Assembly (NCBI RefSeq): GCF_003790525.1
Contig: NZ_CP033635.1
From: Escherichia coli
GTDB lineage: Bacteria > Pseudomonadota > Gammaproteobacteria > Enterobacterales > Enterobacteriaceae
Length of the DNA: 64,000 nucleotides
Strand: one strand, 5' to 3'
Shown: piece by piece, positions 55,215 to 61,970 of the stretch
How positions within the stretch are numbered: position 1 is the stretch's first letter
How the letters are laid out: the number at the start of each line of letters is the position of its first letter
The notes under the pieces: model-generated
Database searches by the model: none
What the model was told of the DNA's origin: nothing
Seen by the model: the letters and a program-made list of their open reading frames with translations, nothing else
Translations under genes and position numbers: made by a program

Positions 55215-57206
55215 TCAGAACGTATACGCGATACCTGCCCAGAAATTGCGACCTTCTTCAATAAACCCTTCACTGTAGGCATATTTGGTATCAAACAGGT
55301 TATTGACCGACGCATTGACGCTGAAGCCATGACCTAAGGTGTAATCGGCTCGAATGTGGGTCACCGCAAAACCGGCGGCTTTTTGTGAACCGTCACTGTT
55401 GCTGTAGCTGGAGGAACGCGCCTCTTCCGACAGCGTTACGCTTAACGGCTCCCACGGTTTGAGAGTCATCCATGCGGTCATTGTCTGCGTTGGCAGATCG
55501 GTTATCTTGCCGATGTCTTTGCGTTTGGCGTCAGCGTGGATCAGGGCGTAGCTCAATCCTACATCCAGTATATTGCTGATTTTCCCCTTAATACCGGCAT
55601 CCAGACCGCTGTAATCCACCGTGCCGCTGTTCTGATTTTGAATGGTATCGGCATCGATATTGTGCGAGAGGATGGCATCACTCACCCGGTTATAGTAAAC
55701 GCTGACCTCAAACCCCCAGTCGTGCGTGAAGGCACCATTCCAGGTTAAATCCACCCCGCGCGCGCGTTCCGGTTTGAGCTGCGGGTTAACAATCGCTATC
55801 TGGTTATACGCAGGTTTGGACGTGGTATAGCGTTCTTTCAGCGTCGGAAAGCGTGTGCGGTCATAGTACGAAAGCGCCAGCGTGTCTTCATTGGCAAAGT
55901 GGTATTTCCCCATCACCTGCCAGTTAAAAGCTGACTGATTGTTGTCGTCATAATGGGTGATACTGCCATCTTTCTCATGTTTTTTCGCTTCTACGCTATC
56001 GCGCCAGTCATAGCTGATTCCAGCCACGACATCGACATTATCGGCAGCAGCCCATTGATATTCACTGGCGAGCGACCAGGTACGATCTTCATAGCGATCG
56101 TAAGCGGCGTGTGGCGCACCTTTTTCCCGGTGTACGTCATCTTTCCAGTTAACGGCAAACGACAGCAGATCGTTTTCACGCACATCGGCTGCCAGTTGTA
56201 ACCCGGCACCGTCGCTGTAATCGGAATAATGGCTGTAGCTGCCTTTTTTATTTTTCAAATCAGCCAGCGAGTTGTACATCATTAGCGTATTTTCAAAGGT
56301 GTCGCGATACAGCCGACTTTTCAGGGTAAAACGATCGTTTAGTTGGGTCGTTCCCTGATAATAAAAACTTTCTTTGTCATACTCTGGCCACTGCCAGTAG
56401 CGTGATTTTTGACCACTATTTCCACTGTATGGCGGGTTATCTTTTTCACCATCCTGCTTAATGTAAGTCAATGTGTATTCATCGTTTTCGCGTGGTGTAA
56501 AACCGAGCTTCACAATGCCGCGTTTATCATCAGCCGATGAATTAATCATCTTGCCGTGTTTGCCTGCAATATCATTATTTACACCATGCGGCAGGCCGAG
56601 AAAATCCTGCTTTAGCTGGCTACCGCTGACTTGCAAATACCCCAGATCGCTGCTGGCGGCAAATGAAGCATGCATATCGTAGGCATTGTCCTGGCTACGG
56701 CTCCATCCCTGGCGATATCCCAGATTTGCTTCCAGAGGTTTTGTTGGCTTCTGGGTGGTGATATTAATGGCTCCGCCCATCTGATTAGGCCCCTGAAGCA
56801 GCGACGAATACCCTTTGGAAACTTCAACTGCCCCCAAATTGTTGGTCAGAATCCGCGCCAGATCGAGGTTGCCGTCATAGGGAACATAAATGGGCACACC
56901 GTCGAAATAGACTGGCACCTGACGACTATCAAAGCCGCGAACTTTGACCTGTTCTTCGTTGCGGCTACCTGACTTTTGCAGCACCACGCCGGGGACGACA
57001 CTTAATGCCTGAGCGACATTCTGTTTATCCAGGGCCTTCATGGTGGGTTGATCGAGAACGGTGGTCGTCGTCGATGATACCGGACTGGACCATACGGTCA
57101 GCGTGTCACTCTCCTGAGCCGCTACGGCCTGCTGGGTAAAGGCAAGTGATAATGCTGTGCAGAGATAACGTTTTTTGAGTCTCATAGAATAAATTCCGTT
57201 TAACAA
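55215..57206 (-). CDS. TonB-dependent outer-membrane receptor
   Basis: Signal peptide, TonB-box-like DTLTVW, C-terminal ...GIAYTF; probable start at M8 (57185). Confidence 0.85.
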   Translation of the reverse strand: MLNGIYSMRLKKRYLCTALSLAFTQQAVAAQESDTLTVWSSPVSSTTTTVLDQPTMKALDKQNVAQALSVVPGVVLQKSGSRNEEQVKVRGFDSRQVPVYFDGVPIYVPYDGNLDLARILTNNLGAVEVSKGYSSLLQGPNQMGGAINITTQKPTKPLEANLGYRQGWSRSQDNAYDMHASFAASSDLGYLQVSGSQLKQDFLGLPHGVNNDIAGKHGKMINSSADDKRGIVKLGFTPRENDEYTLTYIKQDGEKDNPPYSGNSGQKSRYWQWPEYDKESFYYQGTTQLNDRFTLKSRLYRDTFENTLMMYNSLADLKNKKGSYSHYSDYSDGAGLQLAADVRENDLLSFAVNWKDDVHREKGAPHAAYDRYEDRTWSLASEYQWAAADNVDVVAGISYDWRDSVEAKKHEKDGSITHYDDNNQSAFNWQVMGKYHFANEDTLALSYYDRTRFPTLKERYTTSKPAYNQIAIVNPQLKPERARGVDLTWNGAFTHDWGFEVSVYYNRVSDAILSHNIDADTIQNQNSGTVDYSGLDAGIKGKISNILDVGLSYALIHADAKRKDIGKITDLPTQTMTAWMTLKPWEPLSVTLSEEARSSSYSNSDGSQKAAGFAVTHIRADYTLGHGFSVNASVNNLFDTKYAYSEGFIEEGRNFWAGIAYTF

Positions 57207-57210
57207 AGAA

Positions 57211-58065
57211 TTAAATAGAGACTGCGGGTTGCAGACTGACTTTAATGTCAGCTGGTGTCGCGTAATAAGGCGCGGAGGTAATAAAAAGGCGAATGCCGCA
57301 GTCGAGGTAATTTTTGAGTGTTGTCAGATTAATTCCGCCGGTCAGAGCCAGCGTGCAGTGAGGAGCCAGCGACGGTGCTATTTGCGCAATTTCAGTTGCC
57401 TGTTGCGGATTAAATTTGTCGAGCTGAAGTACGTCTGGTTGCGCGCGTAACGCGGCGATTGCCTCTTTCGGCGTGTCGGCTTCAACAACTATTTTCTTCT
57501 CGGGTGCGTGGCGACGTAACTGATTGATTGCGCCTGACCAGTCCTGATTGTCATGAAGAAAATGACGGTGGTTGGCAAACAATAATATGGTTTCCGCACA
57601 TCCGGCACGATGAATCAGTCCTCCGGCAGCCAGAATTGCCTGCGAGGCCAGTAAGCGGGTGCCCGGAATTGCTTTTCGGGTGCAGGCGATATTGCCATCA
57701 GGGTAACGTTCACGAAGTAACGCCAGCATTTGAGCGAGATAATCAGAAACACCGCAACTCCACTCCAGCACATTCTGGACTGCCTTCCATCCCTGATGAA
57801 GTGCTGCGGCATTACCTTGCGCACGGATTAGCCGCTGACCCGCGTTCGCTTGTGAACCGTCGCTGACCGCGTTATCAATAGTTAATCCCAGCGTAGTTAA
57901 CATCTTACACGCGACAGAAATTCCGCTGACGCAGCCGCCCTGACGGTGAAAAAACTCTATATAGCCATGCTGGTGTCCAATATTTAATGCTCGCGTGGTC
58001 AGGTCACCGCCCTGGATATCTTCCAGAAGTAACGCATCGATTTGTGCCTGAGAAAGGAAAATCAT
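57211..58065 (-). CDS. ModD-like protein (quinolinate phosphoribosyltransferase fold)
   Basis: 284 aa; C-terminal TIM-barrel-like region (LALTGGINLTTLKNYLDCGIRLFITSAPYYA) resembles the nicotinate-nucleotide pyrophosphorylase / ModD family; assignment from memory. Confidence 0.55.
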   Translation of the reverse strand: MIFLSQAQIDALLLEDIQGGDLTTRALNIGHQHGYIEFFHRQGGCVSGISVACKMLTTLGLTIDNAVSDGSQANAGQRLIRAQGNAAALHQGWKAVQNVLEWSCGVSDYLAQMLALLRERYPDGNIACTRKAIPGTRLLASQAILAAGGLIHRAGCAETILLFANHRHFLHDNQDWSGAINQLRRHAPEKKIVVEADTPKEAIAALRAQPDVLQLDKFNPQQATEIAQIAPSLAPHCTLALTGGINLTTLKNYLDCGIRLFITSAPYYATPADIKVSLQPAVSI

Positions 58066-60619: not shown

Positions 60620-61683
60620 TAGCTCGCCACCAATTTTTGATAGTCGGCGTCACTGAGTGAACAATGCCAGAACAGTTGGGCGTAATGCTGCATGTCACTT
60701 TTAAACTGGCGATTGATGGCGGGATCCAGCCAGGCGTGAAGTCTGCGTAATCCCAGAAGACGGTTGATTCCCGGCGGGGCATCCAGCCAGCCAAAGGGCA
60801 GGCCACTTAAAAATAAGATGCGTTGTTCCGCAACCGCTTTCACGCCCTGCCAGAGAGGATCACGACGAATAAAATCTGCAGTAACGGCCTCCTGAACCAG
60901 AATAATATCCGGCTGCCAGCGCAGGAGATTTTCCATGGAAACCTGTGTCAGACCGTGGCGATCGGCTATTTGCGCGACGTTGTGCAAACCTAATAATTCC
61001 GCCGCCTCGGTATGCAACGAACCCTGTAAGCCCGTTTCCAGCCCTCGAGGACCGCGCGCAGCATAAAAGCTGAGGTTAGCGGCGGGTGAGGTGGCGAATG
61101 CCTGAGCTTCACCAACGAAGCGGCTGGCGAGATTGGCTTGTTCTGCGGCGCGGTGCTCTTCGCCTAACGTTTTGCCAAGCGTTGTTAACTGTTCTGCTGA
61201 TTGTTCCAGTTTCCCGTTAAGCAATAACCAGGGTATTTGTGTCTGTTCGCTAACCTGCCGTGCCTGGGAGATCCAGGTTTCATCCGTATTGCCGCAATCA
61301 ACGACCAAATCGGGATGTAACGCCATAAGCCCTTCCAGCGAGAGTGTGCTGGCGCGCCCGGCGAGTCGTCCCAGCCTGGGGAACTGGCGAATGTGCTCTG
61401 GCAATGGAATTAATGCCTGACGGGCAAAATCAAAAGAGGAAAAACCGACCATTTTTTCTGGCGCGACAGCCAGCAATAGTAAATCGGCGGGCGCGCCTGC
61501 GCTGACGATGCGTGTAATGTTTTGGGCTTCGGGAAGCGTCAGTGAGGACCAGAATTTGACTGATTGTGCAAAGGACGGCAGATGATGCAGGAACAATGTC
61601 GACGCAAGAATCTGTGTAAACCTCCGTCTGGTTAGTGACATAAGTAATATCCTGATAATTAAAACCGCTATATACTTACACAT
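60619..61683 (-). CDS. Periplasmic substrate-binding protein (class III, BtuF/FhuD-like) with twin-arginine-like signal
   Basis: 354-aa ORF; probable start at MSLTRRRFTQILASTLFL (61641). Confidence 0.7.
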   Translation of the reverse strand: MCKYIAVLIIRILLMSLTRRRFTQILASTLFLHHLPSFAQSVKFWSSLTLPEAQNITRIVSAGAPADLLLLAVAPEKMVGFSSFDFARQALIPLPEHIRQFPRLGRLAGRASTLSLEGLMALHPDLVVDCGNTDETWISQARQVSEQTQIPWLLLNGKLEQSAEQLTTLGKTLGEEHRAAEQANLASRFVGEAQAFATSPAANLSFYAARGPRGLETGLQGSLHTEAAELLGLHNVAQIADRHGLTQVSMENLLRWQPDIILVQEAVTADFIRRDPLWQGVKAVAEQRILFLSGLPFGWLDAPPGINRLLGLRRLHAWLDPAINRQFKSDMQHYAQLFWHCSLSDADYQKLVAS

Positions 61684-61970
61684 ATAGCGAAAAAGATCAT
61701 GTTTGATGTCAAAATTTGTCTAAAGAGACAGAATGATTTGCTTGTTTCTTAAATAACACTTTGTTCCACAAGAAAATTGTCAGGGAGAATGGGGAGTGGG
61801 GGAAAATATAAATAGAGGTGTAATGATTAACAAGTTGATAAAATAAAATTAAAATCTTCTCTAATAAAAGAAAATAAAGGCATAGACCGTAGAAAGAGTG
61901 GTATTTCGTGGTGAAGAAAGAGCAATGCCAATTTTATGCATGTAATGGCATTGCTCGATATACAGTAAAG

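Follow-up and report, generated by a model that had tools for sequence, protein, structure and literature searches.

The 64,000-nucleotide (nt) stretch of Escherichia coli DNA analyzed here (contig NZ_CP033635.1; hereafter the window) carries six intact minus-strand genes between ymgE, which lies on the plus strand and ends at 55165, and treA, which lies on the minus strand with its stop at 61971. Our data indicate that the operon made up of these genes very probably belongs to the ModE regulon and is related to molybdenum (Mo) or tungsten (W). At a lower level of confidence, it is probable that as a member of that regulon it serves the acquisition of one or both metals. The operon is best filed as a MolBC-A-like importer and ModE regulon member that is extended by a TonB receptor and a methyltransferase/phosphoribosyltransferase pair. 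The molybdenum reading is based on a ModE operator and its conservation, the homology of two transport proteins to MolB and MolC, MolA as the nearest characterized fold of a third, the mod, mop and modE genes found next to related loci, a gene fusion that stands beside a ModE-type regulator, and the presence of denitrifiers among the carriers.

The genes are transcribed in the order binding protein, FecCD permease, ATP-binding cassette (ABC) ATPase, class I S-adenosylmethionine (SAM) methyltransferase, ModD and TonB-dependent receptor. Their boundaries were taken from the RefSeq annotation of E. coli strain 2D, whose genome is 100% identical, and are given in window coordinates, together with the control elements (aa, amino acids; CDS, coding sequence; QPRT, quinolinate phosphoribosyltransferase):

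55215..57185, minus strand: TonB-dependent outer-membrane receptor ('prrA'), 656 aa; RefSeq CDS, ATG start at 57185
57211..58065, minus strand: ModD, a QPRT-like type II phosphoribosyltransferase, 284 aa; TIGR01334
58062..58874, minus strand: class I SAM-dependent methyltransferase ('yc73'), 270 aa; 4-nt overlap of its stop with the modD start
58884..59642, minus strand: ABC ATPase ('fepC'), 252 aa; RefSeq CDS
59639..60619, minus strand: FecCD/BtuC-type (type II) ABC permease, 326 aa; best solved relative HI1471 (MolB)
60619..61641, minus strand: class III (Peripla_BP_2) periplasmic binding protein, 340 aa; begins MSLTRRRF
61664..61691, no strand assigned: ModE operator-like palindrome, tTCGCTATATg-TGTAAG-TATATAGCGgT in the minus-strand reading, 23 nt 5' of the binding-protein ATG
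61707..61712, minus strand: -35-like TTGACA, 15 nt upstream of the ModE box; TTGA invariant in 8 leaders

The content, order and strand of the six genes are those given by an earlier sequence-only reading of this DNA, and they were borne out by the open reading frames (ORFs) and the RefSeq CDS of the identical genome. The overlaps of 1-4 nt that it described hold for three of the five junctions (1, 4 and 4 nt), and the remaining two are gaps of 9 and 25 nt. From this arrangement, the six genes look like one transcription unit.

ModE operator and promoter

The palindrome at 61664-61691 matches the E. coli ModE consensus, ATCGNTATATA-N6-TATATANCGAT (quoted in PMC545781), at 17 of the 20 specified positions. 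It is the sole site in the 64-kb window that scores at least 15/20, the runner-up being 14, and the only exact match in the window to CGNTATAT-N8-ATATANCG lies at the same palindrome. A generic scan had flagged it as terminator-like, and it was reread as an operator because of the consensus match and the conservation described below.

Phylogenetic footprinting was performed using eight aligned enterobacterial leaders, from E. coli, E. albertii, two Citrobacter, Enterobacter, Raoultella, Klebsiella indica and Serratia. Conserved blocks in these leaders were limited to the ModE box and, 15 nt upstream, a TTGA(C/T)A; the other conserved positions were scattered, consisting of a CA between the box and the TTGA and of two T's downstream. 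Because of the conserved TTGA(C/T)A at this distance, the box occupies the -10/start region of the probable promoter. ModE represses modA through the same operator placement, and the position of the box suggests that ModE would repress this operon as well.

Every position of 86 related loci, 1.53 million in all, was then scored against the ModE consensus. Matches of at least 16/20 were found at 80 positions, and nearly all of these were located 30-80 nt ahead of the cassette's first gene. Boxes of 16-20/20 precede the first gene in most of the 86 loci, including those of Citrobacter, Serratia, Proteus, Providencia, Shewanella, Burkholderiales and others, and a second ModE box stands ahead of the receptor gene in Proteus, Providencia, Morganella, Shewanella and Pectobacterium. 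The modE-modA boxes of Aliarcobacter were recovered by the same scan and served as a positive control.

A different regulator had been proposed by the sequence-only reading, which pointed to a Fur-box-like stretch at 61822-61845. This stretch is present in the sequence but only at chance level. Its best match to GATAATGATAATCATTATC is 12/19, which is also the best score obtained most often when the 329-nt leader was shuffled 2000 times, and 474 of the 2000 shuffles scored higher. The top Fur score of the leader as a whole, 13/19 at 61654-61672, lies within the bulk of the shuffle distribution and is without conservation. The stretch itself falls in the part of the leader that fails to align even with E. 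albertii, and it is also unconserved in Citrobacter. A Fur box at the promoter was rejected by the consensus scoring, the shuffles and the phylogenetic footprint.

Transport proteins and the iron alternative

A TonB receptor, a class III binding protein, a FecCD permease and a FepC-like ATPase are the architecture of a ferric-siderophore system, and the operon could in principle mediate iron or siderophore uptake under Fur control. The RefSeq product name of the binding protein is 'iron ABC transporter substrate-binding protein', and the same function has been proposed in the literature. The best NCBIfam matches of the receptor point in this direction too, as they are to siderophore and hemin subfamilies, with B12 also represented. 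All of them are beneath the curated cut-offs, with 127 bits against TIGR01783 (cut-off 223.5) and 125 bits against TIGR01785 (cut-off 316.85). The Fur match is at the level of the shuffles and unconserved in E. albertii or Citrobacter, genes for siderophore biosynthesis or for an esterase/reductase are absent from the vicinity, the conserved operator is that of ModE, and the neighbors of the cassette elsewhere are mod, mop and modE and not iron genes. We therefore regard Fur-controlled iron uptake as very unlikely. The sequence-only reading was right in its view that this is not a plain siderophore system.

The receptor itself has the features of a TonB-dependent transporter, namely a signal peptide, a TonB box, and plug and barrel domains. 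The signal peptide ends in QQAVA, followed by AQE, and the sequence shows a TonB-box-like DTLTVWS at residues 27-33 (nt 57087-57107), resembling the BtuB TonB box DTLVVTA. Matches to TonB-dependent receptor models cover residues 45-663, and the Pfam plug and barrel are recorded for homologues. Membership in the cobalamin-uptake families was not supported, as the BtuB model gave 79 bits (cut-off 599.7) and the BtuC model 243 bits (cut-off 461). A search for RNA families in 54500-62500 (Rfam, E<=1) returned a chance Chlorobi-1 match away from the leader and no riboswitch, whether for cobalamin or for the molybdenum cofactor (Moco). With no riboswitch and with BtuB models far under their cut-offs, a corrinoid cargo, which had been suggested from the sequence alone, is unsupported.

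The inner-membrane components gave a more specific result. The closest solved relative of the permease is HI1471 (MolB), with 222 bits and an E value of 9e-65, followed by FhuB, HmuU and BtuC. The best importer ATPase match of the ABC ATPase is HI1470 (MolC), with an E value of 9e-36 and 126 bits. The AlphaFold2 (AF2) model of the binding protein has a predicted local distance difference test score (pLDDT) of 87. In Foldseek it retrieved the uncharacterized 4PAG first (template modeling score, TM, 0.77-0.81) and MolA, 3PSA, second (TM 0.66-0.69). MolA ranks only narrowly above iron, heme and nickel binders, and it is the nearest fold that has been functionally characterized.

The twin-arginine-like signal noticed earlier in the binding protein was confirmed. 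TRRRF is present at residues 4-8 (nt 61618-61632, MSLTRRRFTQILASTLF), and RRxF is kept in the consensus of 17 orthologues. From this motif, the binding protein is predicted to be exported by the twin-arginine translocation (Tat) pathway.

Orthologous loci

Loci from 80 species were fetched via an alignment of the methyltransferase family, and homologues of the six genes were mapped in them. The E. coli gene order occurs in Escherichia, Citrobacter, Serratia, Yokenella, Raoultella, Klebsiella indica, Morganella, Proteus (including P. mirabilis), Providencia and Erwinia mallotivora, and in Pectobacterium it is the same as far as ModD, where the fetched locus stops. The cassettes of Shewanella, Wohlfahrtiimonas and Neisseriaceae are without ModD. 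In Burkholderiales and Pseudomonas the order is receptor, DUF2478, binding protein, permease, ATPase and methyltransferase. The methyltransferase gene directly follows the ABC ATPase gene in all of the examined lineages that have both.

The neighbors of the cassette are molybdenum genes in several lineages. In Rhodoferax and other Burkholderiales it is embedded between modA/modB/modC, modD and modE, in the arrangement modABC-box-receptor-DUF2478-ABC-methyltransferase-modD-modE. Aliarcobacter has modE-modA-mop-modB-modC-methyltransferase-modD behind two ModE boxes. In one epsilonproteobacterial metagenome-assembled genome (MAG), ABC genes, exbB-exbD-tonB, the receptor, the methyltransferase, a di-Mop molbindin and modD stand in one row. 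A metagenomic contig carries the ATPase and the methyltransferase fused in one 527-aa polypeptide (P0198), within an operon of receptor, binding protein, permease and the fusion; the divergent regulator beside it has HTH_1 and TOBE domains, which is the ModE architecture. A more distant lineage has a binding protein, two FecCD permeases, an ATPase and a methyltransferase-methyltransferase fusion, without a receptor. In Edwardsiella (loci L034, L035, L038 and L050, around 9900-11670) the transporter is gone and the methyltransferase-ModD pair remains alone, still behind a ModE box. Many denitrifiers, which have a high Mo demand, are among the methyltransferase carriers. Azotobacter, a known Mo-catecholate user, was missing from the top 120 homologues of the Pseudomonas methyltransferase.

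Some loci showed further peculiarities. An Edwardsiella tarda protein (P0156, 315 aa) consists of an ABC-ATPase fragment joined to a methyltransferase and looks like the scar of a deleted transporter. In the epsilonproteobacterial cassette (L083), a luciferase-like (LLM) oxidoreductase and a protein weakly like methanogenesis marker 11/TiaS are located beside the receptor (5622-6590 and 8590-9321), and these are candidates for further cargo-processing enzymes. In Escherichia albertii NBRC 107761 (locus L010) the receptor gene is split in two ORFs, 11669-12955 and 12962-13609, and is probably a pseudogene; the remaining five genes and the ModE box are intact. Pasteurella canis NCTC11621 has two divergent methyltransferase genes, at 4057-4869 on the minus strand and 5297-6109 on the plus strand, each scoring 218.4 bits against that of E. 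coli, and transporter genes are absent from the 10-kb contig that carries both copies. A 3.2-kb contig of a 'Collinsella sp.' MAG (JAIJJM010000374.1) encodes ATPase, methyltransferase and ModD with 99% protein identity to E. coli and is almost certainly a binning contaminant.

A small P-loop protein often stands in the cassettes without ModD. In Burkholderiales and Pseudomonas this protein is PF10649 (DUF2478), encoded between receptor and binding protein, and in another lineage it is PF03266 (NTPase_1), after the receptor where ModD is missing (L004/L005, 12940-13461). DUF2478 is also paired with the methyltransferase at loci without a transporter (L064, L070, L075 and L077). The small P-loop protein may be a non-homologous alternative to ModD.

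ModD and the methyltransferase

ModD scored 500.7 bits against TIGR01334 (cut-off 178.85), a family that is defined as a hypothetical equivalog only. The NadC model gave 136 bits, which is under its cut-off of 198.4. The quinolinate-binding set of the Mycobacterium tuberculosis enzyme consists of Arg105, Arg139, Lys140, His161, Arg162 and Lys172. When ModD was aligned to this quinolinic acid phosphoribosyltransferase, the TRK, HR, Glu and Asp elements were found to be kept, with a GG pair where the QPRTase has SGG, while Phe163 replaces Lys172, Lys94 replaces Arg105, and Lys replaces the Asn that follows the catalytic Asp. These substitutions are invariant or nearly so across 48 ModD sequences from many taxa, with F163 in all of them and K94 in 47. 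The sub-cut-off score and the incomplete quinolinate-binding set place ModD outside NadC, and the residue pattern makes it look like an active phosphoribosyltransferase with a remodeled base pocket.

The methyltransferases form a distinct family of about 298 representatives of 50%-identity clusters at E<=1e-30, in which the motifs DxGCGPG and W..W...P.CDI..ASRST are invariant, as is a cysteine, C126, outside them. The AF2 model has a pLDDT of 91.4, and its nearest solved structures are small-molecule N-, O- and S-methyltransferases (TM 0.5-0.6); the model thus points to a small molecule as the substrate. For both proteins the gene calls and folds proposed from the sequence alone held up, given the TIGR01334 score of ModD and the methyltransferase neighbors of the second model.

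The loci described above argue that the methyltransferase with ModD (or DUF2478) forms a module in the cytoplasm that is linked to Mo import and not to one transporter type. This is because the methyltransferase trails the ATPase gene of both transporter types (type II, and ModC in Aliarcobacter), is fused once to the ATPase, and remains alongside ModD or DUF2478 at loci that lack the transporter. The sequence-only reading had suggested that the cargo is modified on uptake. The ATPase-adjacent gene order in lineages with both genes and the one fusion speak for it, but the Aliarcobacter and Edwardsiella enzymes are independent of the TonB/type II route.

Two other roles for these enzymes were considered. 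The first is the import and tailoring of an organic cofactor or precursor, either pterin/Moco-related or a heterocyclic carboxylate that is phosphoribosylated by ModD and methylated by the methyltransferase, with expression tied to Mo status as a substitute for, or feed to, molybdoenzyme biogenesis. Type II importers with TonB receptors usually carry B12, heme or siderophores, ModD keeps the QPRT residues for phosphoribosyl pyrophosphate (PRPP) and catalysis around a remodeled base pocket, and the methyltransferase is similar to enzymes that tailor small molecules and, in one lineage, is fused with the ATPase of the importer. Such a role is harder to reconcile with Aliarcobacter, where methyltransferase and ModD trail the classical ModABC, an importer of the oxyanion only, and with Edwardsiella, which retains the pair without a transporter. 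In many lineages, moreover, ModD is missing or swapped for an unrelated P-loop protein, and the Rfam search did not find a Moco or cobalamin riboswitch. We consider cofactor import to be an unlikely explanation.

The second role is protection, in which the methyltransferase, with ModD, would neutralize toxic molybdate look-alikes (tungstate, tellurite/selenite-type species, thiomolybdates) that enter when Mo starvation opens a low-selectivity oxyanion uptake. ArsM, TehB and TPMT are SAM methyltransferases that detoxify metalloid oxyanions, C126 is invariant, and the methyltransferase accompanies two unrelated Mo transporter types. However, comparison with ArsM and TehB gave nothing above generic class I similarity, a single conserved cysteine is weak evidence, and a dedicated TonB receptor and binding protein fit acquisition, not protection. 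This explanation is highly improbable.

Distribution and previous descriptions

The operon region (at least 80% of its length, 97-100% identity) was found by megablast in 2139 of 5426 complete E. coli genomes. In the others the flanks alone match, with ymgE-ycgY-treA as in K-12, so that the view of the operon as standing in place of ycgY proved correct. The 73 nt past the ymgE stop (55166-55238) are common to the ycgY-type genomes at 97% identity, and they include the last 24 nt of the receptor gene (AYTF-stop). Because this relic of the receptor 3' end remains in K-12-like strains, the comparison suggests that the operon is older and was replaced there by the ycgY segment. The ycgY segment itself was rejected as an operon relic, as its similarity to the operon ends with the 73-nt junction.

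The plasmid database PLSDB returned 14 'plasmid' matches, all typed as non-mobilizable and ranging from 90 kb to 4.9 Mb, three of them at 4.8-4.9 Mb. These were read as chromosomes or chromosome fragments filed as plasmids, and plasmid carriage was rejected; the megablast count of 12 places on plasmids should likewise not be taken as plasmid carriage. A compositional sign of horizontal transfer is absent. The GC content of the region is 0.45-0.56, which is ordinary for E. coli, and only the leader is AT-rich.

The cluster is known in comparative-genomics papers as prrA-modD-yc73-fepC and was first described on a pathogenicity island of CFT073. Its counterpart in O157:H7 Sakai is ECs1693-ECs1699 (S-loop#83/OI#55), near dhaKLM and treA. 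It varies between O157 lineages and is among the regions common to extraintestinal pathogenic (ExPEC) and adherent-invasive (AIEC) E. coli strains. No functional study of prrA-modD-yc73-fepC was found in the searchable full-text literature, and the accessible papers on it make no mention of ModE, molybdenum or MolBC-A. The sequence-only reading had named a well-characterized, named uptake system as an outcome that would count against it; the operon does have a name in the literature, but not, in the searchable part of it, a characterization. Two apparent leads were discarded: the modD deletion in an ExPEC Tat paper appears to be a misprint of mdoD, and the 'modD' of a methanogen paper is an ATPase and a different gene.

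Gene boundaries and flanking features

Three longer ORFs were over-extensions relative to RefSeq. They are the receptor from the TTG at 57206 (RefSeq has the ATG at 57185), a 298-aa ATPase ORF from 59780, and the binding-protein ORF from 61683, for which the RefSeq start is MSLTRRRF. One further feature was read from the sequence between treA and the operon:

61920..61956, minus strand: hairpin GAGCAATGCCA...TGGCATTGCTC with an 11-bp stem, then a TTTCTTC T-rich tail

The hairpin sits 14 nt 3' of the treA stop, probably as the terminator of treA, and would shield the operon promoter from treA read-through.

Proposed pathway

On balance, we favor a TonB-dependent pathway for Mo/W acquisition with an inner-membrane part that functions in the manner of MolBC-A. 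With ample molybdate in the cytoplasm, ModE-molybdate would bind at 61664-61691 and block transcription at a site that abuts the -35 and overlies the -10/start region. Mo starvation would lead to co-transcription of the six genes. The TonB-dependent receptor would then concentrate a scarce Mo/W species, either the free oxyanion or a small complex, across the outer membrane; the class III binding protein, predicted to be Tat-exported, would capture it in the periplasm; and the MolBC-like type II ABC importer would move it into the cytoplasm. There, the methyltransferase and the QPRT-like ModD module may act on a low-molecular-weight partner of the metal, be it a ligand, a carrier or a co-imported species. 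The identification of the cargo as Mo/W, and the chemistry assigned to the methyltransferase and ModD in the pathway, are conjectures drawn from the operator, homology and gene neighborhoods.

Several points weigh against this pathway. Molybdate is small enough for porins, so that a TonB receptor for the free oxyanion is not obviously needed, and E. coli already has ModABC. We know of no biochemistry in which molybdate is tied to a SAM methyltransferase or to a phosphoribosyltransferase. The proposed promoter has a poor -10 element. A profile of the 17 binding-protein orthologues scored 243 bits on 4PAG, an uncharacterized protein of Sulfurospirillum, and 85 bits on MolA (HI_1472), covering its C-terminal half only; the binding protein does not appear to be a clear MolA orthologue, and 4PAG appears to be the orthologue. 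ModE binding, Mo-dependent expression and transport are all predictions made from sequence. Finally, the published label for the cluster is 'possibly mediating iron uptake', which was last repeated in February 2026, citing Ye & Xu 2001.

A more elaborate, and doubtful, version is a 'molybdophore' pathway, in which a Mo(VI) or W chelate, such as a catecholate or heterocyclic carboxylate, would be imported by the TonB receptor and the MolBC-like importer, and the metal would be freed via methylation of the ligand by Yc73, docked on the ATPase, and phosphoribosylation by ModD. If so, chelated molybdenum would have its first identified transporter and release mechanism, the latter unlike the reduction or hydrolysis used for iron siderophores.

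Of the complete E. coli genomes, about 40% carry the operon, O157:H7 and ExPEC lineages among them, and it is also present in Proteus, Providencia, Citrobacter and many denitrifiers. If the Mo/W acquisition pathway is correct, a virulence-marker cluster filed under iron uptake since 2001 has been mislabeled; it is probably a cluster already catalogued under the wrong metal. Enterobacteria would gain a TonB-dependent, ModE-controlled Mo/W route that is missing in K-12, and no report of active outer-membrane transport of molybdenum was found in the searchable literature. The pathway would bear on Mo competition in the inflamed gut and the urinary tract, where molybdoenzyme-dependent anaerobic respiration matters. 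It would also give a testable context to ModD, an orphan since the 1990s, and to a new methyltransferase family, and the natural ATPase-methyltransferase fusion would argue for cargo modification that is coupled to import.

Comparison with known systems

The closest known system is the type II molybdate/tungstate importer MolBC-A (HI1470/HI1471/HI1472) of Haemophilus influenzae, to which the permease and ATPase are homologous. MolBC-A imports molybdate in vivo and molB is repressed by molybdate, which parallels the ModE box found here. Both systems have a class III binding protein and an adjacent modD, the latter being among the genes that adjoin molBC-A in H. influenzae Rd. The two differ in that the part of the published H. 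influenzae gene list that covers HI1469-HI1475 names no TonB-dependent receptor or methyltransferase. They may also differ in use, as MolBC-A is described as low-affinity and useful at high molybdate, whereas a TonB receptor repressed by ModE points to scavenging when Mo is low.

The ModABC(D)/ModE regulon has the same type of operator at the promoter. The name modD was first used for the fourth gene of the Rhodobacter capsulatus mod operon. In Geobacter, modDABC lies behind a ModE site. In contrast to the type I ModB/ModA, the operon here encodes a type II transporter of the FecCD/BtuC fold with a class III binding protein, and it adds a TonB-dependent outer-membrane step and a methyltransferase.

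The three-compartment architecture, consisting of a receptor with plug and TonB box, a class III binding protein and a type II importer, is the same as that of BtuB-BtuFCD, FhuA-FhuDBC and FecA-FecBCDE, and predicted Tat export of the binding protein is in common with FhuD. These pathways are controlled by Fur or a B12 riboswitch, while a ModE site is found here; the receptor here is under all curated cut-offs, and two cytoplasmic enzymes are encoded within the operon. By gene content and position this is the same cluster as prrA-modD-yc73-fepC of uropathogenic E. coli CFT073 and ECs1693-ECs1699 of O157 Sakai, where it is a marker proposed for iron uptake.

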